A DNA stretch of 64,000 nucleotides from Minisyncoccia bacterium (GCA_041750655.1 JBGSYZ010000011.1:1794-65793); one strand, 5' to 3'. Shown: positions 4,115-27,103, counted from the stretch's first letter. Made by a program: numbers and translations. The notes: a model not told the origin generated them from the sequence alone.

Positions 4115-5320
4115 CTATTCGTATCGAATAGCATCCAATGGATTCAGAGTTGAAGCGCGTTTGGCGGGGAAAATACCTGTTAGATAACCCACTGCTGCGG
4201 AGAAAATGGCAATGAACAACAAAAAATTTAACGGGAAAGAAAATAGTGACACTGATTGGCCACCAAATTGACTAGCCACAAAGTTAAGAAGTAGGTTGAT
4301 GGTTAAACCCAAAACTACACCCATAAATATACCGGTTATACCTCCCATAAATCCTACAACGACTGATTCGGATACGAACAACCATTTAATGTCTTTCGGA
4401 GAAGCCCCAATGGTCCGCATAATTCCAATTTCTTTCGTACGCTCTAACAAAGTTACTGTCATAGTATTAAACATACCGATGGCAGACACGAGAAGAGCGA
4501 TTCCGCCAAACACCGCCAAGACCGCTTGTACTCCTTGGAAAATCTTTGAGGCCTGCTCCACTGTTTTAGATAAGGCGGTTACTCGAAAGCCATCTTCGAT
4601 AAGAATTTCTTCTGTTGCATTTAAAAATTCATTTGAGGAGACACGAACTTGGGCCCGCTCGTATTCAGTAATACCAACATGCTGACGAAGTTCATTCATC
4701 ATCATTAGAGCGTTGAGCACTCCTTCTTCTTTGGTGATACCTCTCACGGTATACGTCTTATCAATATATACCTCTGTCACTTCGTCGATATTATCTTCTG
4801 ATTGAACTAACAATCTAAACGTTACCTGTTCGCCCACAAACTCTGCAACATCATCAATACCAAAAAGCTTAAGTACCGCTGGAGAGAGCATGACTGTGTT
4901 ACCATCATCGACATCTTCTTCAGTGAACACATCTCCTTCTGCAGCACTTACCCCTGAATACCGTAAATAGGCCGGTTCAGCACCTTGTAAGAACACATTG
5001 CCAGTCAACCCTTTATACGTAATCAAGGCCGGGAAACGCGCTAATGGAGCAGCGTCTAGTACATTATCAATTGATTCAATTTGAGAAATAGTTTCATCAG
5101 TGATTTTTATTGACTGTGAACCTGCAGAAACCCCGAGAGAGAGCAGTGTTTCACCAAACACAATTTGTTCAATAATAATTTTTTGCAGTCCAAAACCCAA
5201 TCCTACTAAAACCACTACCGCTCCAGTTCCCACACCCATACCAAGAATTGTAAGCCACGTACGAAGTGGGTTCGTAATAAACATTCGAGTCGATAATTGT
5301 GCTAAATCTTGTACACGCAT
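4115..5320 (-). CDS. ABC transporter permease, FtsX/MacB family
   Basis: 401 aa. N-terminal TM (LTILGMGVGTGAVVVLVGLGFGL), large extracytoplasmic domain, then three C-terminal TM helices (FtsX fold). Start ATG at 5320 lies 1 nt after the stop of the upstream ATPase, so the two are translationally coupled. Confidence 0.85.
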   Translation of the reverse strand: MRVQDLAQLSTRMFITNPLRTWLTILGMGVGTGAVVVLVGLGFGLQKIIIEQIVFGETLLSLGVSAGSQSIKITDETISQIESIDNVLDAAPLARFPALITYKGLTGNVFLQGAEPAYLRYSGVSAAEGDVFTEEDVDDGNTVMLSPAVLKLFGIDDVAEFVGEQVTFRLLVQSEDNIDEVTEVYIDKTYTVRGITKEEGVLNALMMMNELRQHVGITEYERAQVRVSSNEFLNATEEILIEDGFRVTALSKTVEQASKIFQGVQAVLAVFGGIALLVSAIGMFNTMTVTLLERTKEIGIMRTIGASPKDIKWLFVSESVVVGFMGGITGIFMGVVLGLTINLLLNFVASQFGGQSVSLFSFPLNFLLFIAIFSAAVGYLTGIFPAKRASTLNPLDAIRYE

Positions 5321-5321
5321 A

Positions 5322-8239: not shown

Positions 8240-11200
8240 CTAATCGGTCACTGCATAGAAGGTGTTGCTACCTTGGTGTGGCGCGGCGGCTGTACCAAAC
8301 GGAATTTGTATTCCCCAATATACATCAGCCACCACAGGGGTTGTTGTAGAAGTAGGCTTGAAAAGATCAACCTCTATTGCACTTGAGGTAGTAGCTAAAG
8401 TGGTACAAAACGCACACGCTGAATAATCAAAAGTAGTTGAAGCAAATTTCTGTTCTGATACCGGAATGGTAGATGCACCACCATCAGTTAAATCAGTACC
8501 ATCAATACTAATGTCGATATTTCCGTTTCCAATATTTTCTACAGTGGTAGTAGCGTTATAACTACCAGTATCTGCTGACGGTGTAAGCGAGCCGTAATTA
8601 ATTGAGTTTGTGGTCGATGCAAGAGTAATGGCATTTATAGTCAGAAGATCAACAGAAGGAGCAAAGGCGGAAGTAGTTGCACCGCTTTGATCAGACAATT
8701 CTATAAAACTTCGCCATGTTTCTCCTGAATACGGAGCCATGTCTGTCGCTTCCGCGAAGTAATACACATCAAACGTACATGAAAGCGTACAACTGTTCCC
8801 AGCACAGGCACTATATGCACACTGTGGAGCAGCGCTACGATAACAATTATTTTGATCTTCAGTACAGGTTTCTGTTACTCCACTTCTGAAGGTTGTCGAG
8901 GTGGCCCCAGCTAAATCAGTATAGCCGTTAAGGTCAGTGACCGTTCCACTCGCAGTAATCACAGTGGTAGTACCAGGTGACAATGTAATGTCTGCTCCCC
9001 CATTAAGACTCCACGCAGTGATAGTAGGATCGAAGGCTACCCCAAGCTCAGCTACACTCAAATAAGAATCAAGATCAGTGCCAGCATTAGTGACTCGCAA
9101 ACAATACGCGCTTGATGTTGCATTAACGGTTGGAGAGACAGCGTACTCAAGCTCAGTATACTCATTTTGATCAATATCTAATGAAGCTGTAATACTTGAA
9201 GGATCTTCTTTTATCTTACCGGAAGTAAAGGTTCCATTAGTTTCTAAGAGCAAATCTGTAGTATTATCTCCATCACTATAGTAGGTTGAGCTGACCATAC
9301 AAACTGGAGATGAGCCGCATGAAGACTGGACTGGAACTGAGTTATAGCTAGCGGCAGACACTGCTTCACAAGCCGGTGCTGCTCCCTTGGCTGCATATTC
9401 AATTTGGAACTGTTGACCAGTTATACCAAGGCCAGAATTCTCAACCGCAAAACGTACTCGTGCTACATCTCCAATCACAAAAGTATTGGCCGCGGTATCG
9501 AGCGCTGTGGCCCATGAAGCACCACCATCTGTTTGCTCTGCTCCAAAGATAACTGTTGGTTTAGTATTGGTACGGTATCTTGATGTGAAACTATCCCAGC
9601 CACCATTTTGACCCCAATAGGTAAATCCGAAACCACCACTGCTATGTGAAGAATCTGCAGCTGATGTGGTCGCTACTAATGTACCCCCAGAATTATATAA
9701 ATAAACATCTATAGTATTATCTGTTTGCCAATCAATCTCCACTTCATACCAACCAGTTGCATAAGTAAGAGTAGTGGAAGCTAGTATATTTACCGATCCA
9801 TAATTATCAGTACTTTCTACATTCTCAACCAGTGACATTCGCTCAATACCAAATTGTTCAAGACAAACTCCATAGTTAATATTACTAGTCACTGGTGACT
9901 GAACTCCAAACATAGCACAAGACTCATCACTAGAACCAGCGCCTGTATCTATGTACTGCATGTACCGAATAATTTGACCTTGACTTACAGTCCGATCAAA
10001 GCTAGCAATACCATCCGTCGCTCTAGATGACTCAAATCCGGTCGTATCAAGTCCTTTAGTACCACCAAAAGCAAATGATGAATCAACAGTAAAAAGCGAA
10101 GTGTCCCCGGAGTATGATCCAGACAAGCCTGACTCAAAATCATCAACCACAACAAACGTAGCGCTGGATGAACTAGTAGTGGTAGCGGTCACATTACTGT
10201 AGTACATGAATATATCCAGATTTCCTTGTGCTGGAAGTTCAAATACTTCAACCCAAACCGTAGCATCAGAACTAGCTGTATAACGTTCAATCCAATAATC
10301 TAGCTCTGTCACCCCATCACTTTTAGTAAACCGTAAATCCTCAAAGTCAGCTTGCATATCAGCATCGTACGTAACTGGAATTTTAATGGTAGTAGTTGCG
10401 TAAGTAGCGTTATCTGCATTAACAATTCGGACCCGTTGTCGAGCACCCCAATCAGTATCAAACCACTCTGAGGTAGGAACACCCTCTCCTCCGTCATCGT
10501 GTCGCCAACGATAATGAGTTTGTTCAACCAACAAACAAGCGCTGTCATCCCAACGAATTGAACCACAAGCATCAATACCATCAGCATCATAATCTTCACC
10601 GGAAAGATTACCGACGTGATCACGAAAAGTCCACGCATTTGTAGTCGTAGCATCAAGGTTCACGTTGAACGCGCTTATTGCTGTAGTGGTCGCAAAGCGC
10701 ACATTATCAATAAGTTTCGATGGGTTGGCATTTAGCGTCGTGGAAGCTAGCGTAATAGCACTACCTCCATCAACCGTAACTTCAAAGTCTCCATTGGAAA
10801 GTGAGGACACCGTTGGAATACCTGAGAAAGTCAAACCATTTACATCCAATCCGCGTAATTGATAATACCGAGCATTAAATGTCCCAGCATTTATATCAAA
10901 ACTGTAATTGGTACCACCTAAAGCTTGAATACTAGTACTCGCCGTAGCGGCCCCAATAATATTGAGATTACCAGCAGTTTGCGTAATCGAAGATGAAGCA
11001 GAGTCAACCACAAACACATTAACTGCTCGACTACCACCACCAAGAGCGGTGCCGTCAAAATCTGTGGCGTAGCTCCAGTACTCGGTACCAGTGGCGATAG
11101 TGTAGTTACCGTAGATATAGAGGTACCCCGGAGTATTAGCGTGGTCTTGTGAGTAGAGTGAACTAATAGAAGTACTGGCGAGCGTCGTGGTAGCGGCACT

Positions 11201-14200
11201 ACTGTCCCACATTCTGATATCCATTCCATCATAAATGTACAATGTACCGTAAGTGTCTCCACCAGCTGACTTAGTGTTGATACTGTAGTCACTTCCCGAA
11301 AGAAGTTTCAAAGTGCTATCTGTCCAGGTAGTTGCTGCTCCACCAACACTATTGCTAAATACCCCTTGTACAGCGAGTACAGTACCGGCTGTTTGCGTAT
11401 AACTAGCGGCGTTAGTGAGTAAGAAGTTTCCGGTAGTGGTCGCATTAGTGAGCATTGTCCAACCACCAGATGCACTCGCGATAGAAATGTTATTGAAATT
11501 ATTATTTCCAGGATTAATAGTTTCGCCAGCATCACTAGAATTAAACAAAATGGTACCAGAAGCGTGTGTAAATGTACCACCAGTTGCATCAAGCGAGCCG
11601 CCAATTGAAAGAGTACCAGAGGCGAGTGTTAGTGAGCCAGAATTTAAAATCAAATCATCAAGTAATGTTAGGCTATTGTCTTCCATGGTAAATGTTCCAC
11701 CACCGGTGAAAGTAACTCCATACAGGTCTGAACTGGAAGCCAGCAACGTAGCACTTGTTGAAGTTGAAATAACTAACAGTGAAGTGTTATCTACGACTGA
11801 ACCACCAGTATTTCGGAAACTACCACCGACTGATAAAACACCGGACGGCAAAGTTACTGCGCCTTTTTGTATAGTTATCGCTCCAGTCGCTGTAGCATTA
11901 GTATCGTTCATACTCCAACTACCAGTTCCATTAAATAGTAAACGATTGAAATCAGAATTATTGGCCACGACAGTCTCAGCAGTGGTAGAATCAAACACTA
12001 TTAGTCCGCCATTGGCCACAAAGTTACCACCAGTTACTGACAATGAACCAGTGATAGTGGTTGTGGCGTTCGGTAAAGTAAGAGTTCCGGCTGTTAGCGT
12101 CATATCATTGGCAACACGCAAAGATGTGTCAGAACTTGTAAAGGTGCCAGATCCATTAAGAATAAGGTTATAGAAACCGGTCTCGTTAGTGGCGATAGTG
12201 CGACCACTACCGGCTGAAGTAAATGTCACGGTAGATTGTGCTGGAGTGAAAACAGAACCAGTCCCCATTTCTAGGTTTCCACCAATAGCGTGGTTTTCAG
12301 TATTGGCCAGCGTTAATATCGCATTATCTCTCAATTCGACAGTTCCATCGAGAGCGTCAGATATTCCACCACCAGTAGTAATATTTCCTTGTGGTTCAAA
12401 CTCCTTGTTGGCCCAGACGATTAATTTGGTATTGGTGTTTAGCGTCAACGTATCAGAACCAGCATCAACTGCCGTAAACGGAATATCAGAATCGTTAACT
12501 GAGTCATAGACTGCCATATCGGCTATCAAAATCGGATCAGTACTTTCATGACGTAGAATCACATGGTCTTCGTAGATATCCATATCACCCACTGACGAGA
12601 TTGGGTCAATTGATACAGTAACTCCCTGATCACCGCCATTGCTATTTATAAACAGCGTCAACGTATCATTCGGACTGAAAGAAACACCGGAAATTGAGTA
12701 GGCACCGGTGGCAGAAGAACACGTCGAAGACGCCGCCGGGACCACTACTCCTGCTACTGCTAACACAATATTAGTAGTCACGTCATCACAGACACTAGAG
12801 ACAGACGAGGTATTGTTTTCATACACGTTTCCAGAAATTGTAATCACCGCCAACGAATCATCCCATACGATGTAGCCAGGATTACCATTATCAGCGTCAA
12901 AGTCTTCACCATCGACATCGCCGGTGTGGTTGGTAAAGCGCCATGAGCTCACCGTAGAACCAGAAGTAGTCACGTTGGTGGCGGCGGTCACACCGGTAGA
13001 AGTTGCGAAACGATTGTTAATAAAGTTTTTGGCTGGATTAGCATTTATTACTGAGCCAGCGACTGTCATTGCCGTAGCTCCAGTATTACCAATAATAAAT
13101 TCACCATTTGAAAGAGTGGTGACGGTTGGGGCACCTGAGAACGTCAAGCCATCATTATCTAGGTCTTGTAAGATGTAATATTGGGCATTAATACCACCAC
13201 CAGTAATATCAGCAGAATAGGTCCCGCTACCACCTTGCACCTGCACAGTAGTGGAAGCAGTAGTACTACCAATCATTTGTAATGAGCCTCCAGAGTATGT
13301 AAAGCTGCCACCATTCTCAACATACACATCTACCGCTCGACCGCTACCAAGCGTCGTACCATCGAAGTCTGTTGCGTAGCTCCAATAGTCAGTACCACTA
13401 CTCTTTATATAATCTCCAAATATATACAATTCACCAGTCACGTTTAGGTGGTCCATTGAGTAAACAGAACCGCCACTGGCAGTCAGGTAGGAGGTCGCAC
13501 TAGAATTCCACATCCGGATATGTGTACCAGCCGCTGCACTCAGATTTTCATACTGGTCTAATGTAGTGGAAGCATTAATAGTAAATTGTCCCGCACCAAA
13601 TAAATGTAACGTTGATCCAGTCCAGGTGGTAGCGGCTCCCCCAGCACCATTAGTAAACAGTCCGCCAACAGCCAAGCGGTTGCCAGAATTAAGAGTAAAG
13701 TTTGAAGTAGTACCGAGTGTCCAGGCACCGGTAGAAGTAGCATTTTCGATAACTGTTGCTGCTCCGGCCCCAGAAATATTCACTACCCCAAAACTAGAAG
13801 CCCCAGCGGCGATAGTAAAAGCATCGGTACTATTGAAGGTCACGGTACCACCGGAATTGGTAAACGTACCGTCATTATCCCAAGCACCACCAACAGTTAA
13901 AGTTGCACTGTTACTACCCACTAATGTTCCATTACTGGCTATATAGACGTCACCACCTATAGAACCGACCGGGTCATTGGTGTCCAACGTAAAGGTAGTT
14001 GGTGCCGTACCACCAACTCGCAGATTATTCAAAACAGGCAAACCAGTGGCAGCGGCAGTGAAAGTTGGTGTTCCCCCACTGGCTTCTACGGTAAGATTGT
14101 AGTACTGCGTATTACGAACAGTATTACCCAATACACCACCGTAGCGTACGGTACTGGTGTCTTCAAGGAAGGTTCCATTTTCTACAAAGACGCTACCGCT

Positions 14201-20200: not shown

Positions 20201-23200
20201 AGTTGATATCTCTGTCCATGTACCAGCATCAAGAATAACCTTACCGTATTCCCCAACTTCGTTTGAAATAGTAACACTACCGGAAGTTGAGGCGGTCAAA
20301 CCGTTTAGTGTACCCTGTTGGAATTGTTCTCGTGTGGTTTGGAACCACGTCGAGACTGACACACTGGTATCAACAGTAAACGCATCTGGGGCTGACCATG
20401 GCGACCACGCATCTCCTCCATAAGGATCTTTAGCCCTAACTCTCCACCAATACGTCTGACCATTAGTCAGTGCTTCACCACTTTGAATGGTGTACGTAAC
20501 ACTGGCACCTGAGGCATATGGATTGCCAGAAGAAAAACCTGGTGACGTACTCGAGTTACGGGTAGTACTACTGACAAACGTGTAGTCAGTGCCCCACGAT
20601 ATTTCATACTCAAGTAAGTCACCCTGAGGGTCAGTCGTCGTAAAATCTAAGGCTGGTGTAGTGGTGGCTATTTTTTCATTATCAAATGGATCACCAAGAG
20701 TTGGTGTTTCTACACGCTGACCCCAAACAACTGTCCAGTCTTGTATAGATAAAGAGGTACCGGTGAAATTAGCAACGAGTCGAATTTGATTATACGTATC
20801 TGTATCTAGATCAAGTAAATTAATTGGCGACGTTCCGTTCCCAACACTGTTGTTTGCAATCGCACTGTCTGGAATAAGAGACCAAGAAGAACCGTTGAGA
20901 TATTCAATCTGGTACAAGATTGTGCCGCTTGTTTCAGTGTCCCCCCAGGACACTGAACCCCACGCGTTACCGACAGTCGCGTCATCAAAATCTATAGCCG
21001 TACTGGTCATAACTCCACTACTACCACTAACTGACACGGCGCCGGTTGAAGTAGAAAGACTGGTGAGAGCGTTGGTCGAGAATTGATCACCAGTTGTCTG
21101 ATGCCATTCACTAACTGTGACTGAGCCGTCAGTTGTAAAGCTATAGGCTGTTGACCAGTCGCCCCAAGTATTTGAACCACTAGGATCAAGACCACGAACT
21201 CGCCACCAGTAGGTGGTACTAGCTGTCAAACTGCCAGTACCGGTGAAACGAATCCTGGCTCCACTATCAAATGGTGTTTTATCTGACGGAGTATTTACGT
21301 TCTCAAATTGAGAAAGACTGGTCTGAGAATTTTTATCTATAACTGGTGAGCCGAACGCCACATCATCATCAACTTGTATTTGGTAACGAATATCATCTCC
21401 GGCAATATCAGTGGCCGCAAAATCTAATACTACCGGCGATGAACTAGCTGTGCGCTCATTGTTGAAAAATGAAATCAATGTTGGTGCCAGCGGCGGACCG
21501 GCTGTTTCCAATTCTGGATAACTAGTATAGGTCACCAACTCAATACCAGTTGAACGTACCATGCGGAAACAGTAGTTAGAGTTAACGCTAGCGTTATTGC
21601 TGGTTATCGTCCAATCCCATTCTCCGACTTCTCCTGGGTTAATAGTATTTTGCAAAAATTCAGAGAGGTTTTCTTCCTCGTACGTTTCAGATACTGTACT
21701 CGAAGCGAGTGTAGTAGAGGAAAGTATCGTTCCATCAATGAGGGAACCATTGTTATAACCGTTAAACGCTGCCGTGGTGCTACCAATCTCACCAACGTCT
21801 GACCAGGCAGTAGCTACCGAACATTGACCGGTATCAGCTTCTACATACTGTAACTTAAATGCAGTAGAACTGGCTGAGCCGGTAGCCACATTAGCTTGTA
21901 AGTTCATACGCAAACGCATGACATCACCATCATTGACAGCCCCTTGTCCAGTGATAGCTATACCTTCAGTAGCAAAACTTCCCTCTCCAAGTGGCCACGT
22001 ACTCGTCGGTGTTTGGTTAGTACTATTTTCATACCACCCAAACGACAGTTGTTCATACTCGGCATCAATGGTTACTTCTTGAGCTCCAAAACTATAACCA
22101 AAAAATCTATTGGCATATTTACGACCCTGCACACCACCGAGCATATTTGTTTCGTCATTGTCCTCTTCGTCATCTTCATAGATAGCATAAAAAGGTACGC
22201 CATTTGTGGACACTACTTTATACCCAGCAATAAAAGCTAAAGCTGAACCACCTTGTCCATTGTCAAAATATACTTTTCCAGGTGTGTTGGCTCCCGGAGT
22301 ACACGTAGCTCCTTCAACAAACGTGCCATCGTTTTGCTGCACTTCCAATGTAGTGGTTCCAAAGCGTGGTGAACAAGCGATGGCTACATAGGCTGAATCC
22401 GTCGGAATATAATACTGAGTTCCCATTTCATGTCGTGCCCAAAAAGCACTAGACTCGTTACCGTCTCCGTCAGCCTGTTGGATAGCAGTAATTGGATACA
22501 GAGCATTAGTCAAGCGAGCTGCCCCACCTGCCCCCTGTCCCGTAGAAGTACAGGTACCAATTGATTGTTGCTCACCACGAGTCACCCCTGAGACTGTAGC
22601 CGAACTACCGCCCGAACAATAGACAGTTGGATTAGGGTTATCAGTCACGGTCGAAATATACGCGCTACCAGTGTAAATACCAAAAATATCGCGAGTGGTT
22701 GGTGGATACGATACAAAACTATCTCTGCTACCAGTTTCCATGTGGTATACCAAAACTGGTTGCGTTGAAGTTATGACCACGCCGTTACTTCCACTACCAT
22801 CAGTAGTAGAACGGCCAGTAGTTCCAGTGGCTACACTAAAAGTTTGGCTTGGAGTACCGCTGTTACCTAAGTATGTATTAATAGTCGAACTAGCAAACGG
22901 TGAATGAATATAGTATGAACTAGTATTTCTCGTAGTAGGGACAGCAAATGTTGTCGTGGCAAATGAAATTGGAGCCAAAATATCTCCCCCCGCGGAATCA
23001 ATAGTCGCCGCAATTGGACCAAGAGAACTGATAACTGAGGTTGATGAATACGAGCTAAATGTAGTTGGTTCCCCACTATCAAGCGGTACTGGTGTGCCCC
23101 CGTCAATTGAAACTAAGTTGTTGTCTACATAACTATAAACACTTATAGTTCCCCCAGTTAATCCTTCTACTGCATAGTAAATAGGAGTAGTGGTGCTGTA

Positions 23201-26200
23201 GGTAAATGGTGCAAACTCATCACTAGCTGGTGTGGCCGCCGCGTTACCGTAATACATATAGATAGTAGTGGATGCCCCCGCTGGCAGACTGTCCACCTGC
23301 ACCCACACATCTGCCTCGTCAGTACTTGTACTAAAATGTTGCAACCAGTAATCAAGCTCGCTAAAGACTGTGTTAGTAAAGCTTTCTCGAGTGGAAGTAG
23401 CGTAAAAATCGGTTGTGGTGGACTGGTTTCGGTACGTGGCAGTAATCCAGTCATCGCCAGGCACTACATTTAAGAAGCGCATTTCGTCGATTGTGGCGTT
23501 TAGATGTTGTGAGGTATCGCCACTACTTAGACATGAGACATCTTGTTCTAATCCAAGAACGAGACAATTATCTGGAATAGAAAGTGTACTAAGTGACTGA
23601 GAAGAGGGACTGTTATCATCTTCTACTCCATCAATAAAAGCCTTCCACTCATTTCCCACAGTGTCTCGACTGATTAAGACGTGTCGCCAGTTTGGTGCAA
23701 TCGATAGATCATTAATACTAATCGTTGCTCCTGGGAAAAACTGAAGTGTTGTTCCACCACCAGTGTTATAGAGTAAATATTCATTGTTGGCACCTCCATT
23801 GATCAATGCTTGATTACCGGCTTCGGAAGAATTCATCCAGTACATAAACGTGAGCTCTGTTTCACCATTAACTATATCGCTCGGTAAAAGCATGTACTCA
23901 GACGCATCTCCTTGCGCATCTATTTCTTGACCTTGTCCGAGTAAGCCTGTTTTGCCACTTGAGTTAAGTTGATCATCTGCGTCATATTCATTACTGGTAC
24001 TATCTTGATAGAGACCAGCTGTGCCGCGACCAGCCGCCGCTTCTTCCAAGTGATAGACAGCAATAAATTCACTGTTCCATACATTTTGAGCACCATAAGT
24101 ATCTGTCTCTGCATACCCAACTGCGTCTGAATTACCAAAATACAGATAGAAGGTAGTGTCGACTGATGAGGATACATCTCCTTTGAAATGTAATTCTCCT
24201 GTATCAGCACCTGTGTTGATAGATACTAATTCATAAGGAACCTCGGTGGTTCCGTCACTTTCTGTGATTCGAATATCACCACCGTCACTTTTAACTGTAT
24301 TAAAGAAATCAGTTCCAAGGTCAGCTAGGTTTACGTATACAGGAAAATCAGTTTGATCACTATCGACTTGTGAAGATTGAATAGTTATCGGAATACGGTC
24401 AGACCAGCCAGTTCCGTACCACGCGTCTTCCGTACCAGTTGTGGTCTCTTGTACAAAGCGGATATCACTGCCATCATCGTTTACATTAGCCCAGAAGTTT
24501 GTGAGAGAACTATTAAGTTCAAGAAACACTTGTTGTTCAGTTAAATTAGAAGTGCCTGAAGTATTGTCAATAGTAATTGGCAGACGATAGTTCCACTGAC
24601 TAGCCCAGAATGGATCTAAAAGACCATATTCATCATCTCCAATTGCTTCAATCCAAAACTCACCGGTAGTTAATGGCGGGAAGGAAATTTCCATCTTAAA
24701 ATATTTTGTCTCGCCAGGAGCAATAGTATATTCATTGGGAGTATGAGCACGAACTTCAAAAGTATCTGGTTTTGGCTTAATGTCAGGCCCAAAACCAAGC
24801 CAATCTTTGGCTTTCTTAAATAAACTCCTCTTATCTTCAGGTGTTCCTTCAACTACTGTTTCTGGTTCCCAACCATCTACGTATTGAACGAGTTTGTGTT
24901 CTCGTACTTTTACATCGTTTATTCGACATGCTGTGTTGTCTCCATCAATCTCATCACATTCACGGACAATGTTAGTATTGCGACACACATATGTTGTCGC
25001 TAATACTTCATCAGACTCATCATCAGTCTCAGATGAACTAGTTGCCGTACTTAAATTATTTTGAATAGTTGATTGCAATAGTGGAGCTTCGTTATCAACC
25101 GATTTTAGTGTCTCATCATTTGTATCAGGTCCAGATTCTAAGTCTTCAGTTGGAGTTTCCACATCATTCACTGGTCCAGGCTGACTAGTCTCTTCTGGTG
25201 TGTCTTTAGATATGTCTACTTGATCACTGGTATCTGGCTCAGAATTACCATTATCAAAATTATTTTGTTCTGATTCAGGTATAACAGCCGGTTCTATTGT
25301 CGTAGTGTTGTCAGATGATGGTGCTAACAACTTGGATATATCTTCCAAATTACTATTAACCGGATTGTTGGTTAGTTCCCAACCAGCTTCGCAGTGATAC
25401 ACAAAAGGCTTGTACTCAGGTACCACAACATCTTTTGGTTTATTAGAATTCCATTCTTCAATGTTGGTAACTTGTCCAATACCATCAGGGAAATATGTCT
25501 GAAGCTTGAATGTATCTTCAGATTTACTAATGTTGGTAACATTAAAATATAGGGTGCTTTTACTCAATCCAGGATAATTAACTTTGTCTGATTTAATAAT
25601 TAATGTTTCATTAGTATTATCGTCAGTAAAGGTAAAATCTATGTTAGTACCGTCAGGTAATTTTAGCGTATCACCCTTAAGGATTTGATCGTCGTAACCA
25701 TTATCGGTTAGTAGAGTCAAGTTATCTTCTGTCACATCTGGTGATTCTAAGGCAAAGAGTTCAAGCCAAGCACTTTCTACAAAAAGACCGTCTAAAGCTC
25801 TCGGATCATCATCGTAGACTAACTCAATCATCAGGTTGTTTAAAGTGTCTGAATCACTTATTTCTGGCAACGCGAAAAGGAAATACCCTCCGTTAGTACC
25901 ATTAGTTACTTCTTCAGTTATAGTTATCTTACCGGCTTCGGACCAAGACGCTCCATTGTCAAACGAGTATCTAAGTTTAAATAATTGCGCTGCGTCACGA
26001 GTTTTCTTTAGCTTAGCCGCAAAAGAAACTTTTAGTTGAGCGCCGTGAACTGAGAATTTATCATTAAATATTGGCAACCCAAAGTCTGACAATTGGATAG
26101 TGTACTCAGCACACATTTCTCCACACGGATCACTTACCGATGGCACAACAACTGAATCAGGGTTGTCTACGGCTTTGAGAGTACCAGAAGGTAATTCAGT

Positions 26201-27103
26201 TGTAGTAGCTGCTGGTGTAGCAGTAATAATTGGAGGCGTGTTAGTGGCTGGTATAATCTCGTTCGGAACACTGGTCGTTGCAGTAACAGTCTCTTCGCCT
26301 GAGTTTGAAGTTGAAGGAATAACAGATTCTTCTAAGGTCGGTTCCGCAACGAGTGTACTATCACCAGCATCGTCATCAACAAGATCAACACTTTCATCTT
26401 GCGCCACTGGTGTAGTAGTGCTTTCGTTCATAAACGGCAGCCATTTAGTAACAGAGGATAGCACCCAGTTAAGGCCGCCTTTAGCCTTCTTAAATGAGGT
26501 TGTGGTTGGGAACTCTTCGTTATTTACATTGACCTCTGCTTCATACTCAATGTCAGTGTCTGCAGTTTCTACATCAGAATTGGTTTGAGTTTCAACTTCT
26601 TGAGTTGTGGTTGTTTCATCAACTTTATCAATTGTTGGTACTTTAGAGTCATCTATAACTTGTTGACTAGGCAAAGGTGTAAGTGAGCTTGCATCATTTA
26701 TTTTTTCTTCATTTCTATTTTTAATAATCTGCTCGATTGGAACCTCTTCTAAATTAAACCAAGCAGAATTTATCTGATTGAAATCTTGATACAGTGCTAC
26801 TTCACTAACATTTTGTTGGACGAGAGTTTCAGCATTGTTCCAGCCAGGTGCTGAAACTTTACTTGGAAACACATTAATTACTTGGATGTTATAAACGTCC
26901 GCATCATCTGCCGATACTATGTACCAACTAAGTGCTACGCCTGACAACATTAGTAATACAGTAGTAAGCAAATAGGTTTTTTTTCTGAAAATGAAAGATC
27001 TAGACAAGTAACTACTAACAAAAGCCCACGAATATGATTTTATCGCTTTAAATAAGGCTTTATGTAATTTTGCTACTCTTGAATTATGAGGAAAATCTCG
27101 CAT
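8240..27103 (-). CDS. Giant (6287 aa) membrane-anchored multidomain surface protein (adhesin-like): DUF2341+LamG modules, Fn3-like modules, beta-helix super-repeats, Cys-rich C-terminal domain
   Basis: Single uninterrupted 18.9-kb ORF. N-terminal TM at aa ~44-63 (nt 26915..26974). Acidic Ser/Thr/Asp-rich low-complexity stretches at aa 120-320 and 600-700. Three DUF2341-type modules, each with W..R.PITI..., DG.DIRF and Y.YYGN. Two of them (aa 837-995 with 1010-1250, and aa 3226-3330 with 3340-3570) are each followed by a LamG/ConA-like lectin-fold region; the third (aa 5545-5645) is followed by a lectin-fold-like region I did not classify. Two Fn3-like modules ending in TYWWRVR..DP.G...W..WS (aa ~1880-1995 and ~2140-2255). 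Long T/G/S/N-rich stretches typical of parallel beta-helix. Three ~780-aa super-repeats (aa 3596-5530). The aa-to-nt mapping was verified at the DLRFTK codons (nt 10322..10340). Confidence 0.85.
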   Translation of the reverse strand: MRDFPHNSRVAKLHKALFKAIKSYSWAFVSSYLSRSFIFRKKTYLLTTVLLMLSGVALSWYIVSADDADVYNIQVINVFPSKVSAPGWNNAETLVQQNVSEVALYQDFNQINSAWFNLEEVPIEQIIKNRNEEKINDASSLTPLPSQQVIDDSKVPTIDKVDETTTTQEVETQTNSDVETADTDIEYEAEVNVNNEEFPTTTSFKKAKGGLNWVLSSVTKWLPFMNESTTTPVAQDESVDLVDDDAGDSTLVAEPTLEESVIPSTSNSGEETVTATTSVPNEIIPATNTPPIITATPAATTTELPSGTLKAVDNPDSVVVPSVSDPCGEMCAEYTIQLSDFGLPIFNDKFSVHGAQLKVSFAAKLKKTRDAAQLFKLRYSFDNGASWSEAGKITITEEVTNGTNGGYFLFALPEISDSDTLNNLMIELVYDDDPRALDGLFVESAWLELFALESPDVTEDNLTLLTDNGYDDQILKGDTLKLPDGTNIDFTFTDDNTNETLIIKSDKVNYPGLSKSTLYFNVTNISKSEDTFKLQTYFPDGIGQVTNIEEWNSNKPKDVVVPEYKPFVYHCEAGWELTNNPVNSNLEDISKLLAPSSDNTTTIEPAVIPESEQNNFDNGNSEPDTSDQVDISKDTPEETSQPGPVNDVETPTEDLESGPDTNDETLKSVDNEAPLLQSTIQNNLSTATSSSETDDESDEVLATTYVCRNTNIVRECDEIDGDNTACRINDVKVREHKLVQYVDGWEPETVVEGTPEDKRSLFKKAKDWLGFGPDIKPKPDTFEVRAHTPNEYTIAPGETKYFKMEISFPPLTTGEFWIEAIGDDEYGLLDPFWASQWNYRLPITIDNTSGTSNLTEQQVFLELNSSLTNFWANVNDDGSDIRFVQETTTGTEDAWYGTGWSDRIPITIQSSQVDSDQTDFPVYVNLADLGTDFFNTVKSDGGDIRITESDGTTEVPYELVSINTGADTGELHFKGDVSSSVDTTFYLYFGNSDAVGYAETDTYGAQNVWNSEFIAVYHLEEAAAGRGTAGLYQDSTSNEYDADDQLNSSGKTGLLGQGQEIDAQGDASEYMLLPSDIVNGETELTFMYWMNSSEAGNQALINGGANNEYLLYNTGGGTTLQFFPGATISINDLSIAPNWRHVLISRDTVGNEWKAFIDGVEDDNSPSSQSLSTLSIPDNCLVLGLEQDVSCLSSGDTSQHLNATIDEMRFLNVVPGDDWITATYRNQSTTTDFYATSTRESFTNTVFSELDYWLQHFSTSTDEADVWVQVDSLPAGASTTIYMYYGNAAATPASDEFAPFTYSTTTPIYYAVEGLTGGTISVYSYVDNNLVSIDGGTPVPLDSGEPTTFSSYSSTSVISSLGPIAATIDSAGGDILAPISFATTTFAVPTTRNTSSYYIHSPFASSTINTYLGNSGTPSQTFSVATGTTGRSTTDGSGSNGVVITSTQPVLVYHMETGSRDSFVSYPPTTRDIFGIYTGSAYISTVTDNPNPTVYCSGGSSATVSGVTRGEQQSIGTCTSTGQGAGGAARLTNALYPITAIQQADGDGNESSAFWARHEMGTQYYIPTDSAYVAIACSPRFGTTTLEVQQNDGTFVEGATCTPGANTPGKVYFDNGQGGSALAFIAGYKVVSTNGVPFYAIYEDDEEDNDETNMLGGVQGRKYANRFFGYSFGAQEVTIDAEYEQLSFGWYENSTNQTPTSTWPLGEGSFATEGIAITGQGAVNDGDVMRLRMNLQANVATGSASSTAFKLQYVEADTGQCSVATAWSDVGEIGSTTAAFNGYNNGSLIDGTILSSTTLASSTVSETYEEENLSEFLQNTINPGEVGEWDWTITSNNASVNSNYCFRMVRSTGIELVTYTSYPELETAGPPLAPTLISFFNNERTASSSPVVLDFAATDIAGDDIRYQIQVDDDVAFGSPVIDKNSQTSLSQFENVNTPSDKTPFDSGARIRFTGTGSLTASTTYWWRVRGLDPSGSNTWGDWSTAYSFTTDGSVTVSEWHQTTGDQFSTNALTSLSTSTGAVSVSGSSGVMTSTAIDFDDATVGNAWGSVSWGDTETSGTILYQIEYLNGSSWSLIPDSAIANNSVGNGTSPINLLDLDTDTYNQIRLVANFTGTSLSIQDWTVVWGQRVETPTLGDPFDNEKIATTTPALDFTTTDPQGDLLEYEISWGTDYTFVSSTTRNSSTSPGFSSGNPYASGASVTYTIQSGEALTNGQTYWWRVRAKDPYGGDAWSPWSAPDAFTVDTSVSVSTWFQTTREQFQQGTLNGLTASTSGSVTISNEVGEYGKVILDAGTWTEISTQVSYNDPVVVASLRYSMTGDAQRSVRVRNKTADSFEMIVDDPFGTLTGTTTVDYLVMETGVWTLQDGAGGTQVIAGTYANVSDVQGGGGYAASGYGADVTFSPPFSVPPAVIATVSTENDSSWVIAHLNDGNTRNNPPTASAMGLYLGRSNETAVHSPEDIDYIAFEPGHGTNNGAEFDADFGTDSHDEAPPTAEAFTSAFSPSAPEVVIVMQGAEQGGNGAWASLYAATPPTTSNYYPVVDESGDRNHTTEPILTLAFENASGVLLRDSTVGGDLTGEIYSEPILFSDGAGPKFEQLLWNDTEPGTSTITYRLQYLTSTSSWAYIPDAALPNNSIGTTTSPIDLTGLNVSTYNTLRIVGSFSCASGNCPSLQDWTIEWSEGVLMSGTLKQYDRSTNVTSGTVRAAVNGSLLGNTGTVSAGVWSISNVTAFAGDVVTVWVDGAAEANEAVAVFVYDGTGDITGVQMFEQHLSLSSDENGTTTNALLGAYDNSVSGDEDIFFDVDGSNDLSVCAISGCSEASLYIGSGDVYIPDVTSSGNVTTHDFINSGRVELDANTVRVSGSWKNNATFLPETSTIIFTATSTSETVDDADNILDFQNLTFGETSGTATWQTYDPVDVNGALNVTYGTLNRASSTITVAGNLTTGANGFWSGVSTTTFDGSGTSFWSDSNTVKQNVGRVVVDGGAKTITLSSSVYASSTTIGANDTLNAGGANTLFLAGNFTNDNVFSAQTGTIQIVGTSTNAIIKTNGSSLYNVTASTTGSGSISFSESSVSMLGNLTIATGTVTLATATTTIGGSFLNTGGTFAHNNGAVRFTGSGSKSVTLGGTTFLNHLYNVTFAGSGTYTFADINATTSNILRITSGNVVLPSGQLSVARNFITSGSGSFSHNNGEVVLLIEGNDTVTTNGSSFNNLRIRQGSGGSGSWYGSQWTSRVPITIRSSVIDGDLSNFPVYVDLSDLPSAFFSGINTGGGDIRITQSDGITEVPREIVSASTTAETGELYFKASSVSSTTDTIFYIYYGNATATDYAVTATYGAQNVWNNGYVLVSHMNDETTSTIVNSANGSLDGTKLSANNPPQTNLGQIYEAQNFAGTEHIAYGNVGSGAANITISAWINPSNLTGSGDTNTYGYSIFSAHSAGAYTWLTVGGSGGGGSTDEVRFCAFSSSVTCNVANGSNINTGEWHYVSATAIDGGAAAVRVDGNNVLSFTSDGGGTWNSGSTIGDLRPNRDIEFEGILDEIQISNVVRSTAWQDATYRNQGTTTDFYAVGSPQQDSVRTMADINTTVTGNMTVESGQVILPTGVLSIGGSFDNNDGFDANDGTVLFNSTSSSETIAPGSSSFYNLSFNSVSGDWTIIENATSTNNVTLTNAGTLTLNSGLSLYVGGEFTSAVGGASTTWTGSNIILGSGTDYVINTKTAPSDVYATLTVTGDGDVSLWNSSATIYNMLSTASLYSQDHTGVDGDLYIFGNYVRTSGTEHWSYLTDFDGVSLATTTPRQVDVRIQNGATVIASSSGLSIVGSSTASTTIDAQSGSFTLRTNTASVTAQYFEVTGTNASGFQLTSSSTVNTFNNAYFRIPAASSAVTVDASTIDTTPAKQFFDTDFVTAGGNVNVTLSGSPTSYWWFRDGAGDRYGEAFDNADGNPGSIRWDDSSYSIVVSGTVYADDGNSTLGGPTCDGVTNSVRIVVDGGVYSSSTPCSGVDGSYSFGAVNYVGDPSIIVYLDTNGGTTGSVITKTPTANITNLDIYANRVMTRHEDLAPLTIADMAVYDESDDTDIRFVAATGTTDTLTVRADNELYIFASTTFAPGGPVTLTSGGTGNVYDGTLHLGATSTFTGVGTTTYNVGGSIIVEPAAKLTTASSTFVMTATTTGKTITASSTLAFNTLQFTGVGGGWNLNTNITATSGINVATGTLTGTANVTVTNGSFYGDGLVSFGAGTVAIYRSNTYGGVQSWTVNNLTLGNGTVVGTTTPGGTATNTVSGVLTINAAHFLDANNSAWNLTGSGSVFVENGTFLEDTSTVRYGGVLGNTVRNTQYYNLTVEASGGTPTFTAAATGLPVLNNLRVGGTAPTTFTLDTNDPVGSIGGDVYIASNGTLVGSNSATLTVGGAWDNDGTFTNSGGTVTFNSTDAFTIAAGASSFGVVNISGAGAATVIENATSTGAWTLGTTSNFTLNSGNRLAVGGLFTNGAGGAATTWTGSTLHLFGAGQFTINASTTLDQYENLSAAAGTHIRMWNSSATSYLTASGGSVYSMDHLNVTGELYIFGDYIKSSGTDYWSYATDFDGTTLGSGRAVDVYVENGGSFTYSGGSLQMIGSTTASTTVQVQGGSGTYSADITGGGINAQYYILQDLDNDGLTFSGAPTVTTLSNGEFIIGNTGATAMTVAGSVINANPAKNFINNRFATSTGVTAATNVTTSGSTVSSWRFTNHTGDVDGEDFDADNGNPGYIVWDDSLAVITISGNVYENNTSSVSSVCDDVTTNIVLAVAGVVVPAASSTCSSATGAYSISGVSFSPNDTLTLFINSNGGDQGVTVSIDPISSVGDMDIYEDHVILRHESTDPILIADMAVYDSVNDSDIPFTAVDAGSDTLTLNTNTKLIVWANKEFEPQGNITTGGGISDALDGTVELRDNAILTLANTENHAIGGNLEMGTGSVFTPAQSTVTFTSAGSGRTIATNETGFYNLILNGSGTFTSSDTSLRVANDMTLTAGTLTLPNATTTITGSLSVTGGNFVANGGLIVFDSTTAETVVANNSDFNRLLFNGTGSWSMNDTNATATGAITIQKGAVTLPSGVLSVGGSFRNTGGSVVDNTSLLVISTSTSATLLASSSDLYGVTFTGGGTFTMEDNSLTLLDDLILNSGSLTLASGTLSIGGSLDATGGTFTHASGTILFNSSDAGETINPGNNNFNNISIASASGGWTMLTNATTTGNFLLTNAASYTQTAGTVLAVQGVFSNSVGGAATTWTDSTLKLLSGSDYSINTKSAGGDTYGTLYIYDGMDIRMWDSSAATTTLASTSISSLYSQDHANTPGYLYIYGNYTIATGTEYWSYATDFDGTALGGGSRAVNVFVVDSASSSITQTAGNLNIIGAATASTSIQALGGTNYSFDINAGTFNARYYQLRGLDVNGLTFSGIPTVSSLSNGDFEVTVDGGSAITLASTTLNANPSKLIDNVRFATTTAISAFNVNLDATTTNAWTFRDHVGNLSGEDYDADGIDACGSIRWDDSACLLVEQTHYRWRHDDGGEGVPTSEWFDTDWGARQRVRIVNADNATYATTTIKIPVTYDADMQADFEDLRFTKSDGVTELDYWIERYTASSDATVWVEVFELPAQGNLDIFMYYSNVTATTTSSSSATFVVVDDFESGLSGSYSGDTSLFTVDSSFAFGGTKGLDTTGFESSRATDGIASFDRTVSQGQIIRYMQYIDTGAGSSDESCAMFGVQSPVTSNINYGVCLEQFGIERMSLVENVESTDNYGSVNILASTTLTYATGWYEVEIDWQTDNTIDVYLYNSGGTLVATTSAADSSHSSGGFGFTYWGQNGGWDSFTSRYRTNTKPTVIFGAEQTDGGASWATALDTAANTFVIGDVARVRFAVENSGLGITGQQFQIEYAAKGAAPACEAVSAASYNSVPVQSSCGSSPVCMVSSTYYSDGDNTTDLLLETNGTFTSGKIKEDPSSITASLDIDQNEYTELEYAVSPTVNATSSAYCLRVTNAGTDLDSYLSVAELGVAFDPTITAWSLNGGADITLSPGTTTVITASGTVTDLNGYTDLAGATSTTFRSGVTETCTEDQNNCYRSAAPQCAYSACAGNSCTLSCTFDVYYFAEATDMAPYSGETWRSFIELSDQSGATTSAFAPSVDLLTINAITLASTTNSINYGSLTPSADTGSYNATTTVENIGNGNIDISIDGTDLTDGGASTIPVSEQKFASTTFDYSACAFCTTLATTSSAIEVDLFKPTSTTTPVVADVYWGIQIPFGTAAAPHQGSNTFYAVTD
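10516..16318 (-). repeat. Protein-level tandem super-repeats (about 780 aa each, three copies, the third truncated) inside the giant gene
   Basis: Units begin at aa ~3596, ~4397 and ~5163. Each has a beta-helix-like block ending ...TTWTGS.L.L.....Y.IN, then (I/L)(R)MW(N/D)SSA..., YSQDH/YSMDH, LYI(F/Y)G(N/D)Y, WSY.TDFDG, GNPG(S/Y)I(R/V)WDDS, and in units 1 and 2 also ADMAVYD. Copies are diverged at roughly 40-50% identity, so this is not a DNA-identical repeat. Confidence 0.65.

Follow-up and report, generated by a model that had tools for sequence, protein, structure and literature searches.

A predicted giant surface protein of Minisyncoccia with a split DUF2341 domain, encoded in a conserved six-gene locus with a type VII-like ABC transporter

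What might a bacterium of the Minisyncoccia do with a single reading frame of 18.9 kb, and with which neighbouring genes might its product work? The gene was found in a stretch of 64,000 nt (GCA_041750655.1, JBGSYZ010000011.1:1794-65793), hereafter the window.

8240..27103, minus strand: giant gene, 6287 aa, 18.9 kb, an intact ORF without long DNA repeats inside
26915..26971, minus strand: N-terminal hydrophobic segment, aa 45-63 (Kyte-Doolittle mean 2.0)

The giant ORF is real and intact, and repeat mis-assembly is excluded. It starts with ATG and runs for 6287 sense codons without an internal stop, as the initial annotation of the window had stated. Within the gene, DNA repeats of more than 30 nt were not found, and the internal repeats of the protein, mapped with 250-aa fragments, share just 33-57% of their residues. 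The single hydrophobic segment of the giant (aa 45-63) is a predicted Sec signal-anchor or signal peptide, and a C-terminal transmembrane or hydrophobic segment is absent, which agrees with the N-terminal anchoring proposed initially. Of the 27 giants of the family, 24 have a corresponding segment, and the other three appear N-terminally truncated. The sortase-substrate motif [LIV]Px[TSA]G (LPXTG-like) does not occur in the giant, so the protein was not placed among sortase substrates. Raw-sequence searches of the giant against the PDB gave no matches, and NCBIfam contained no model for it.

The DUF2341 domains and the lectin-like domains that follow them are placed as follows:

24443..24610, minus strand: N-terminal half of DUF2341-A, aa 832-887 (local HMM positions 3-58, 35.1 bits)
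24122..24424, minus strand: complete DUF2341-B, aa 894-994, inside domain A (local HMM 2-103, 149.9 bits; PF10102)
23396..24103, minus strand: LamG/ConA-like domain 1, aa 1001-1236, likewise part of the insertion
23216..23377, minus strand: C-terminal half of DUF2341-A, aa 1243-1296 (Pfam profile 8-61; local HMM 66-104)
17123..17431, minus strand: DUF2341-C, aa 3225-3327 (local HMM 145.2 bits; Pfam 24.5-24.9 bits)
16397..17107, minus strand: LamG/ConA-like domain 2, aa 3333-3569 (local LamG HMM; Laminin_G_2 sub-threshold)
10184..10468, minus strand: DUF2341-D, aa 5546-5640 (Pfam 65.5 bits; hhalign 98.9%)
9569..10165, minus strand: predicted ConA-like lectin/glucanase-fold domain d2, aa 5647-5845

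Pfam PF10102 (DUF2341; gathering cut-off 23.4 bits) was recovered above its cut-off in aa 651-1400 (68.5 bits in two stretches, the best being 1243-1296), at aa 3272-3329 (24.5-24.9 bits) and at aa 5586-5658 (65.5 bits). A local DUF2341 HMM of 104 positions, built on 86 stand-alone homologues, delimited complete domains at aa 894-994, 3225-3327 and 5546-5640, together with two halves at aa 832-887 (HMM 3-58) and 1253-1291 (HMM 66-104). When the two halves were joined, they scored as one domain with 68.8 bits, against 35.1 and 11.0 bits apart. In the AlphaFold2 (AF2) model, the N-terminal half forms strands b1-b3 (pLDDT 93-96), and the order of secondary structures in the split domain is that of a complete one (pLDDT >90, pTM 0.81). 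Profiles and predicted structure together show DUF2341-A as interrupted between strands 3 and 4 by a complete DUF2341-LamG cassette. The same nesting was seen in the giants P0138 and P0171 and in fragment P0001, while fragment P0019 retains the junction from LamG to the C-terminal half; in P0150 and P0160 the nested insertion holds two cassettes. The three complete DUF2341 modules reported initially therefore become four domains, three full and one split. Their nucleotide positions agree with those of the local HMM, except that 24119..24595, taken as one complete module, consists of the N-terminal half of the split domain and a separate complete domain; the additional partial match (aa 1243-1296) is genuine, and is the C-terminal half of that same split domain. 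DUF2341-D is invariant, being found in all 27 family giants.

That two of the DUF2341 modules are followed by LamG was borne out. The LamG family profile matched LamG-type chains of the PDB, 4qvs at 1.2e-18 and 5hon at 2.7e-15, and homologues of these regions carry PF13385, while Pfam Laminin_G_2 on the window's own sequence stayed below threshold (17.4 bits versus a cut-off of 22.9). By profile or structure, these regions have the LamG/ConA-like lectin-glucanase fold. The region after the last DUF2341 had been described as lectin-fold-like and unclassified. The fold stands, and the predicted structure of this domain, d2, is now classified as a ConA-like lectin fold, similar to CBM66 and L-type lectins; hhalign of d2 (aa 5647-5845) with the LamG cassette gave no signal, so that this fold was seen from the structure alone. 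The structural neighbours of the lectin folds are carbohydrate-binding modules, including AbnA domain 4, CBM40, CBM66 and L-type lectins. The same folds also serve in protein binding and in enzymes, for example GH16 and DUF1080.

The remainder of the protein is made up of the following elements:

21554..21940, minus strand: beta-sandwich distantly like d3, aa 1722-1850 (d3 profile, E 3e-4)
21209..21484, minus strand: Fn3-like module 1, aa ~1874-1965 (Ig_Rha78A_N sub-threshold; internal repeat)
20375..20704, minus strand: Fn3-like module 2, aa ~2134-2243 (Ig_Rha78A_N 36.7 bits, cut-off 27.4)
17435..18604, minus strand: array of ~80-aa predicted beta-solenoid sub-repeats, aa 2834-3223 (solenoid profile matches; internal repeats)
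15290..16372, minus strand: predicted beta-solenoid module 1, aa 3578-3938 (361 bits with the profile from the modelled copy)
12890..13966, minus strand: predicted beta-solenoid module 2, aa 4380-4738 (355 bits; three-unit alignment)
10577..11698, minus strand: predicted beta-solenoid module 3, the modelled copy, aa 5136-5509 (AF2 pLDDT ~90)
9077..9562, minus strand: C-terminal beta-sandwich d3, aa 5848-6009 (AF2 model; family profile)
8246..9064, minus strand: terminal domains d4 and d5, aa 6014-6286, common to the product of the 635-aa downstream gene

Both Fn3-like modules proposed initially repeat each other (aa 1874-2038 versus 2134-2292, 38% identity); module 2 exceeds the Ig_Rha78A_N cut-off over aa ~2148-2243, whereas module 1 reaches only 19.6 bits, and only E 0.039 with the fn3 model itself. 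As for the long beta-helix tracts, the one AF2 model of aa 5136-5509 displays regular strands of 3-5 residues every 7-10 residues and the module, of ~370 aa, is present in three copies, but no Pfam beta-helix family matched the giant, and hydrophobic autocorrelation revealed no clear beta-helix period. The C-terminal module of 750 aa is invariant in the family and consists of DUF2341, the ConA-like d2 and three beta-sandwiches. Its family profile matched nothing in the PDB, and Foldseek with the five-domain model returned only low-TM matches of the "string of beta domains" kind. The last two domains recur in p635, the 635-aa protein (BLASTP 7e-18), where the d4 and d5 profiles match residues 385-468 and 488-628.

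The giant is one orthologue of a family of 5300-7700-aa proteins from Paceibacteria (Patescibacteria/CPR). Its C-terminal 748 aa were matched by 7982 representative proteins, of which about 45 are giants bearing this module at their own C-terminus; a word-indexed protein search gave matches up to 1986 aa, full-length giants being recovered only from the representative search. Relatives are encoded at 413 places in GTDB species genomes, and the best 80 of these 413 loci carry the label Patescibacteria, except for one labelled Acidimicrobiales and three records with the generic name "bacterium". The comparison with giant genes of other genomes, advised at the outset, found the protein collinear with about 27 independently assembled giants. 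Aa 1700-2300, 2600-3200 and 3600-6287 form a core covered by 27 of 27 giants; it begins at the beta-sandwich of aa 1722-1850, with full coverage from aa ~1700, and comprises Fn3/jelly-roll domains and the three predicted solenoid modules; the N-terminal third, which holds the split DUF2341 unit, is variable. The DUF2341-LamG syntax, considered unusual at first, proved common: it is a standard cassette in hundreds of Patescibacteria proteins, occurs in 0 to 5 copies among the orthologues, and is repeated 21 times in tandem in the unrelated protein P0191.

Downstream of the giant gene, five genes follow on the same strand:

6699..8225, minus strand: gene 2, secreted Fn3 protein, 508 aa (55/55 loci, median identity 65%)
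5322..6641, minus strand: gene 3, ABC ATPase, MacB/LolD/FtsE-like nucleotide-binding domain (NBD) (55/55 loci, median identity 75%)
4115..5320, minus strand: gene 4, MacB_PCD and FtsX permease, type VII ABC (55/55 loci, median identity 76%)
2129..4036, minus strand: gene 5, p635, N-terminal hydrophobic segment, d4-d5 at the C-terminus (54/55 loci)
1034..1978, minus strand: gene 6, p314, signal peptide, two beta-sandwich domains, C-terminal transmembrane anchor (53/55 loci)

The canonical order (giant, secreted protein with four Fn3 domains, ABC ATPase, permease, p635, p314) is kept on one strand at 53 of 55 loci. An ABC/FtsX pair had been noted as following the giant gene; it does lie downstream, but the Fn3 gene is in between. 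This adjacency is part of a conserved six-gene locus and is not incidental. Gene 2 starts 15 nt past the stop codon of the giant, its likely start being the ATG at 8225 and not the listed GTG; about four Fn3-like domains were counted in its product by eye, with three Pfam fn3 stretches. The NBD of gene 3 (ABC_tran, 119 bits) carries an additional C-terminal extension of ~200 aa, and the permease matches MacB_PCD (67.3 bits) and FtsX (65.7 bits). Both proteins have the sequence features of type VII (MacB/LolCDE/FtsEX) ABC transporters. Their best NCBIfam matches are LolCE/MacB for the permease and LolD/MacB/FtsE for the NBD, although the scores lie under the cut-off of every named equivalog. 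The product of gene 6 is a weak WxLIP-like relative (E 0.036 in the Pfam search).

Elsewhere in the window, many glycosyltransferase and wall-related genes surround the giant gene, and GH5/GH39-like and GH18 genes as well as a WxLIP_PGBD protein are also encoded. The upstream neighbour, syntenic in one relative, is

27230..28765, minus strand: cohesin-domain protein with a C-terminal transmembrane segment and a coiled tail.

In agreement with the initial annotation, MotA_ExbB was absent from the 38 ORFs scanned of the 39 of at least 150 aa in the window.

Giant DUF2341 proteins (>4000 aa) of Patescibacteria, and their suspected role in adhesion, are already in print (PMC11809585). Such proteins (PF10102 with PF13385 Laminin_G_3; COG5306) have the same cassette as the giant, at 31-44% identity across its full length and as much as about 60% in shorter parts; they come from the same phylum, and orthologues of the giant bear the same annotation. 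That literature counts domains only, without the orthologous family, the nested split domain, the C-terminal module or the ABC locus, and no description of the orthologous family or of the six-gene locus was found in the literature. The giant protein alone is ordinary for its phylum. What is new is its conserved ABC-containing six-gene neighbourhood, the link between giant gene and ABC locus being previously undescribed.

In MotA/TolQ/ExbB-fused DUF2341 proteins ("generic ion transporters", PMC12505986), the domain likewise projects outside the cytoplasm from a membrane machine that is energised. In the giant, however, it is part of a separate 6287-aa protein, and the co-conserved energiser is a MacB/LolCDE-type ABC transporter; the locus was not assigned to that system, as the scanned ORFs lack MotA_ExbB and the five downstream genes differ. 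RTX/T1SS adhesins such as LapA, SiiE and MpIBP resemble the giant in being giant, repetitive and ABC-linked surface adhesins with lectin-type ligand-binding modules. In these diderm systems the secretion signal is C-terminal and export runs through an HlyB-type ABC protein, an MFP and TolC, whereas the giant has an N-terminal hydrophobic (Sec) signal and a MacB-type (type VII) ABC; neither RTX/HemolysinCabind repeats in the giant nor an MFP gene were detected, and a T1SS was not assigned. With MacB, LolCDE and FtsEX the locus shares a MacB_PCD and FtsX permease and a separate NBD, but its NBD has the extra ~200-aa extension, and the transporter scores under the cut-off of every named family. 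Type VII ABC transporters are not known to be dedicated to a giant surface protein.

What the giant and its locus do can be inferred from these features. With moderate confidence, we regard the giant as a surface fibre that is exported by Sec, binds glycans and is put together or driven with the help of a mechanotransmission ABC machine. Sec would carry it across the single membrane, and the beta-solenoids would provide a rigid stalk of roughly 100 nm displaying three or four lectin-type units. These may bind glycans on the surface of a partner or host cell, or environmental polymers, and swappable DUF2341-LamG cassettes might adjust specificity. Through their common d4-d5 domains, the giant and p635 would join a single complex that includes the other products of the locus. 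The type VII ABC would not transport the giant; it may use ATP to act mechanically at the external membrane surface, for example to release the N-terminal anchor or to build or reshape the fibre, and would stand in for MotA/ExbB, which energises other DUF2341 systems. From the domain content, an adhesin-like role is reasonable. Conserved synteny suggests a link between the giant and the ABC transporter; in genomes of ~1 Mb, gene order may stay conserved for other reasons. The N-terminal segment may also be cleaved, in which case the conserved C-terminus might be the end nearer the cell.

A more specific proposal, which we regard as tentative, is that the six genes form an undescribed surface-fibre system of ultrasmall monoderms, with a MacB/LolCDE-type ABC transporter dedicated to the giant fibre and with the split DUF2341 as a socket for one or two swapped cassettes. 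The ABC transporter might extract the N-terminal anchor of the giant or, alternatively, place the giant and p635 on the membrane anchor p314, and would replace the sortase, WxL, T1SS or MotA/ExbB machines used elsewhere, and swapping of cassettes in the conserved socket would change partner specificity.

Among the alternatives, a structural coat is a rather unlikely one. Here the giant, p635, the Fn3 protein and p314 would form an S-layer-like or fibrous envelope required by every cell, its lectin folds attaching to wall polysaccharide of the same cell. Within the class, the locus is almost universal and its gene order strict, as would be expected of a housekeeping envelope structure; 4qvs, the PDB chain that the LamG cassette matches best by sequence, bears the name "S-layer domain-containing protein"; and glycosyltransferases and wall-related genes are abundant around the giant gene. 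However, the strong variation among species in the N-terminal third and in cassette number is more typical of ligand-facing adhesins, and neither SLH nor another known wall-binding domain was found in the giant.

It is unlikely that the locus encodes a WxL/Csc-type complex in reverse orientation, with d4-d5 as a cell-proximal anchor, comparable to the WxL domain at the C-terminus of "large" and "small" WxL proteins, held by p314 as a WxLIP analogue, and with the N-terminal segment as a cleaved signal peptide. This idea follows the logic of WxL clusters (PMC10599100, PMC9772566). The Firmicutes WxL/Csc clusters (large WxL, small WxL and WxLIP; PMC10599100, PMC9772566, PMC1534035) and the giant locus are both from monoderms, and in both the C-terminal part of a large protein with many domains recurs in a smaller protein (here the giant and p635). 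Both also have beta-helix/Ig-like stalk domains and a partner built like p314, which has the WxLIP architecture of signal peptide, two Ig-like domains and C-terminal transmembrane helix. Moreover, the p314 family profile aligned with the window's WxLIP_PGBD protein (hhalign 71.5%, E 3.6e-5, 166 columns; BLASTP 5e-4). On the other hand, Pfam WxL (PF13731) matched neither p635 nor, even with the limit relaxed to E <= 1, the C-terminus of the giant or those of 10 diverse family members, and WxLIP matched none of nine p314 orthologues. Such clusters lack an ABC transporter, whereas the giant locus has one as well as an Fn3 protein, and the giant is ~10 times larger, with a conserved N-terminal hydrophobic anchor. 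With WxL undetected in the Pfam tests and WxLIP only weakly suggested, the locus was not classed as a WxL surface-protein cluster.

A giant polysaccharide-degrading enzyme, in which the solenoids would be catalytic (tailspike depolymerase- or pectate lyase-like), the lectins would act as carbohydrate-binding modules and the target would be a host capsule or wall, is very unlikely. The solenoid gave weak Foldseek matches to a tailspike (CBA120 TSP2, 5w6p; E 1.7e-4), the neighbours of the lectin domains include binding modules of glycoside hydrolases, and glycoside hydrolase genes of the GH5/GH39-like and GH18 types are present in the window. But the TM-scores are very low (0.12-0.18 for 5w6p, 0.1-0.18 overall), no catalytic family was detected in the giant by Pfam, NCBIfam or PDB sequence searches, and the solenoid repeats resemble generic stalk repeats.

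The DUF2341 annotation (COG5306/MJ1470) could point to a PilY-like tip adhesin associated with a type IV pilus, which is highly improbable given that the N-terminus of the giant lacks a class III (pilin) signal and that no pilus-related Pfam family was recognised in the 38 scanned ORFs or the five conserved downstream genes. Finally, a pseudogene or collapsed-repeat assembly artefact, as might be supposed from the orthologue in GCA_041389005.1, which is broken into at least 10 ORFs, has practically no probability left in view of the stop-free frame, the lack of long DNA repeats, the collinear giants and a reading frame unbroken across all available 13 kb or more at 51 of 56 loci.

We return to the surface fibre, the reading that we prefer, and to what it would mean. 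Complete genomes of relatives are about 1 Mb in size (CP064968.1, 1,054,716 bp; CP060229.1, 994,774 bp), so that one gene of 18.9 kb accounts for close to 2% of the genome. Almost all species sampled have it in intact form, along with its five fixed partners. That organisms which have lost most of their metabolism bear this cost suggests a role at the centre of how they live, for which contact with other cells or surfaces is a plausible candidate. The split DUF2341 offers a clean natural case of nested domain insertion with copy-number variation, and type VII ABC transporters gain a candidate new job. The family is a phylum-wide, defined target for metaproteomics, cryo-ET and recombinant glycan-binding tests.

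The giant gene (8240..27103, minus strand) runs from an ATG start through 6287 codons without a stop, in agreement with the uninterrupted 18.9-kb gene of the initial annotation. Its product is rich in Thr, Ser and Gly and has a single strongly hydrophobic segment (aa 45-63); neither a hydrophobic segment at the C-terminus nor an LPXTG motif was found. The internal repeats are old, with 33-57% protein identity, and direct DNA repeats inside the gene are at most 30 nt long. Repeat collapse or mis-joining, against which a check had been advised, is therefore very unlikely. Comparison with the giants of related genomes, also advised, showed that the frame is open over all the available sequence (at least 13 kb) in 51 of 56 loci. 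A pseudogene or artefact was rejected on the open frame, the diverged repeats and the intact frames of the orthologues.

In GCA_041389005.1 (JAWKSR010000001.1, loci L002, L003 and L024), frame changes cut the orthologue into at least 10 called ORFs, still collinear with the window giant at 36-58% identity; either the gene is decaying or the assembly is error-prone. The MacB permease gene is likewise split in this genome. In the complete Ca. Kaiserbacteria genome CP064968.1 (locus L005), the giant is called as an ORF of more than 5626 aa overlapping a 994-aa ORF with the C-terminal module, which reflects a frameshift or else a genuine split into two genes.

Pfam PF10102 scored above gathering in three regions of the giant protein (best stretches aa 1243-1296, 3272-3329 and 5586-5658), and a second stretch was also matched in the first of these. 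Because this model spans only the C-terminal two-thirds of the DUF2341 domain, a local HMM of 104 positions was built from 86 stand-alone homologues. It located the following domains.

DUF2341 domains of the giant protein (local HMM)
aa 832-887: N-terminal half of DUF2341-A (HMM positions 3-58)
aa 894-994: DUF2341-B, full (150 bits)
aa 1253-1291: C-terminal half of DUF2341-A (HMM positions 66-104)
aa 3225-3327: DUF2341-C, full (145 bits)
aa 5546-5640: DUF2341-D, full

The three complete modules initially described are thus present, but a fourth domain exists in two halves. When aa 830-886 were spliced to aa 1243-1300, a single full-length DUF2341 match of 68.8 bits was obtained, more than the two halves summed. 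The split domain reads DGSDIRFVQ...(insert)...ELDYWLQHF, and the unbroken domain D reads EDLRFTKSDGVTELDYWIERY. From the spliced match and the sequence order, what had been taken for an extra partial DUF2341 is therefore the C-terminal half of one domain into which a complete DUF2341-LamG cassette is inserted. In a confident AlphaFold2 model of aa 830-1300 (pLDDT 88.4, pTM 0.81), strand order is the same in the split domain as in the intact one: the insert is preceded by three strands and a short helix and followed by three more strands, and the two halves of the split domain would be in physical contact.

The LamG family profile matched LamG-type PDB chains (4qvs, 1.2e-18; 5hon, 2.7e-15), so that domain searches recovered both DUF2341 and LamG. 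The remaining architecture was outlined with a solenoid profile and a second AlphaFold2 model (aa 5135-6287, pLDDT 89.8).

Other predicted structural units of the giant protein
aa 2845-3223, 4134-4213 and 4933-5135: ~80-aa solenoid sub-repeats (solenoid profile)
aa 3578-3938: full beta-solenoid copy (solenoid profile)
aa 4380-4738: full beta-solenoid copy (solenoid profile)
aa 5136-5509: solenoid of short regular strands (model)
aa 5647-5845: ~200-aa sandwich after DUF2341-D (model)
aa 5848-6009: C-terminal sandwich d3 (model)
aa 6014-6148: C-terminal sandwich d4 (model)
aa 6155-6286: C-terminal sandwich d5 (model)

The region behind the third module had been described as lectin-fold-like and unclassified. 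It is lectin-like but can be classified, as the model gives aa 5647-5845 a ConA-like fold; no profile similarity between it and the LamG cassettes was detectable. The closest structural neighbours of the giant's three ConA-like domains are carbohydrate-binding-module in character. Both Fn3-like modules reported earlier are probably present, one scoring above the Pfam threshold and the other below. A weak H-type-lectin match (E 0.012) lies at aa ~2300-2600 (window ~19300-20200), a region found in 6-13 of 27 family giants that may be a further optional lectin insert.

A DUF2341-LamG query matched 373 proteins from Paceibacterota, Parcubacteria, Wolfebacteria and relatives, most of them stand-alone (350-420 aa) or tandem (700-790 aa) "DUF2341 domain-containing proteins". 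Among 1.84 billion cluster representatives, 7982 matched the last 748 aa of the giant; in about 45 of them, which are 5300-7700 aa long, the entire region is found at the protein's own C-terminal end, with 36-57% identity. When one genome per GTDB species was scanned, relatives were encoded at 413 places. The best 80 of these loci bear Patescibacteria labels (Kaiser-, Nomura-, Adler-, Lloydbacteria, Paceibacteria and relatives), the exceptions being three records with the generic name "bacterium" and one with an Acidimicrobiales label. Identity was at most 59% in the species-genome loci and reached 82% in a metagenome fragment. FhaB and/or DUF2341 domains are carried by 82 of 149 Patescibacteria proteins of more than 4000 aa, for which adhesion was suggested (PMC11809585). 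The supposedly unusual domain syntax does not hold: among the Paceibacteria the giant is an ordinary and widespread type of protein, one that has been reported before (PMC11809585).

Domain variation was scored with local HMMs in 27 family giants. DUF2341-D is invariant among them, while the internal DUF2341-LamG cassettes number from 0 to 5. Coverage mapping delimited a core common to 27/27 (aa ~1700-2300, 2600-3200 and 3600-6287); outside this core, the cassettes, aa 2300-2600 and the first third of the protein are variable. The giants P0138 and P0171 show the same nesting, two cassettes lie within the split domain of P0150 and P0160, and the insert of P0133 is non-LamG. An unrelated 7264-aa protein, P0191, has 21 head-to-tail cassettes, which shows that purely tandem arrays of the unit can arise by amplification.

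The giant gene belongs to a conserved locus. Occurrence was counted in the 55 loci of species representatives whose downstream sequence extends for 8.5 kb or more.

Genes following the giant gene, with occurrence and median identity
First (start 15 nt past the giant's stop codon): secreted protein, about four Fn3-like domains; 55/55, 65%
Second: ABC ATPase, extended by ~200 aa at its C-terminus; 55/55, 75%
Third: MacB_PCD+FtsX permease; 55/55, 76%
Fourth: p635 (635 aa); 54/55, 46%
Fifth: p314 (314 aa); 53/55, 61%
Giant C-terminus: query, 52%

The five downstream genes are on the same strand and in canonical order in 53 of the 55 loci, and three NCBI genomes, among them the complete 1.05-Mb Kaiserbacteria chromosome CP064968.1, have the identical series behind the orthologue. 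The ABC/FtsX pair said to follow the giant gene does lie downstream, but the Fn3 protein gene intervenes. The reported lack of MotA/ExbB was borne out in the 38 window ORFs scanned (of 39 ORFs of at least 150 aa). Matches of the ATPase were to LolD, MacB and FtsE, those of the permease to LolCE and MacB, all below every curated cut-off; division FtsEX was ruled out because the periplasmic domain is MacB-type. The extension of the ATPase (5322-6641, minus strand; aa ~240-439) is charged, probably helical, without a family match, and unusual compared with MacB/LolD-type NBDs. The C-terminus of p635 corresponds to the giant's two last domains (BLASTP 7e-18; profile matches at 385-468 and 488-628), and both proteins have the terminal motif YWGIxIP...NTF.AV. 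In p314, a signal peptide precedes two beta-sandwich domains, and a TM helix lies at the C-terminus.

Other window genes (all minus strand)
27230-28765: cohesin-domain protein encoded immediately upstream of the giant; has a C-terminal TM helix plus a charged coiled tail
29617-31455: 612-aa dockerin-ended protein, two genes beyond the cohesin gene
31509-34000: three tandem ~270-aa paralogues with FGE-sulfatase (formylglycine-generating enzyme-like) domains
34421-35479: 352-aa WxLIP_PGBD protein (Pfam, 28.4 vs threshold 27.3 bits) with a C-terminal TM helix
37068-38414: Y-family (ImpB/MucB) polymerase
41113-45750: 1545-aa fusion of two GT4 glycosyltransferase units and a C-terminal polytopic membrane part (DUF2206/PMT_2-like)
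50402-50854: separate 150-aa Peptidase_S24 (LexA/UmuD-like) protein
52247-55670: sortase gene and the gene of a 933-aa DUF642/InlB-B-repeat protein, whose end it overlaps

At ~27170-27197 (minus strand), between the cohesin and giant genes, GCGCGCCAAC-N7-GTTGGCGCGC makes a perfect GC-rich hairpin with a T-rich stretch behind it. This looks like a terminator, so the giant gene may have its own promoter. The cohesin, dockerin and WxLIP_PGBD proteins are syntenic with GCA_041389005.1, and the first two may form a surface tether of cohesin-dockerin type in this CPR bacterium. The FGE-sulfatase paralogues have no counterpart among the called genes of the corresponding L002 stretch. No WxL-domain protein was identified beside the WxLIP_PGBD protein, whose occurrence in Patescibacteria is notable since, to our knowledge, components of WxL clusters have hardly been described outside Firmicutes. 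The GT4 fusion is surrounded by genes for GT2/GT4 glycosyltransferases, polysaccharide deacetylase and flippase-like proteins. The 933-aa protein ends in a sorting-signal-like C-terminus (…SIPTAWLGMVAIASSKRYVR) without a canonical LPXTG. The polymerase and the Peptidase_S24 protein are putative SOS-type functions in a reduced genome.

We propose that the giant would be exported by Sec via its N-terminal signal-anchor, and that some 2000-2500 solenoid residues and about 20 sandwich domains would build a rigid stalk, on the order of 100 nm long as estimated from standard rise values rather than computed. The displayed lectin units would bind glycans of another cell or surface, with a specificity changed by cassette gain or loss, including swapping into the split-domain "socket". 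The giant and p635 may dock via their common terminal domains. MacB, LolCDE and FtsEX, type VII ABC transporters, act by relaying motion powered by ATP to the membrane's outer face; by superfamily membership, the transporter of the window is taken to work likewise and would transmit such motion there.

The giant could instead be a structural coat component, which near-universal conservation fits better than it fits an adhesin; the ligand-type modules are nevertheless variable, and we consider a coat unlikely. Somewhat less probable still is a WxL/Csc-like complex with the giant's C-terminus at the wall. It would account for a large and a small protein with common terminal domains and for a weak p314-WxLIP relationship, but no WxL domain was detectable in 12 sequences tested and nine p314 orthologues had no WxLIP match. 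A depolymerase, suggested by weak tailspike similarity, is very doubtful, and a pilus-tip adhesin was rejected from the domain, family and neighbour evidence, the last of it from the 38 window ORFs scanned and the five conserved downstream genes.

The observation of the giant is real, and its first description was good apart from two anatomical corrections. Judged by the searchable literature, three elements are new: an orthologous family defined by an invariant C-terminal module, the nested DUF2341 "socket", and the strict conservation of the giant gene's link to a MacB-type ABC transporter and to three other exported proteins. In our view the neighbour genes are the interesting part of the finding, which would gain in interest if the proposed coupling between the ABC transporter and the fibre is functional.
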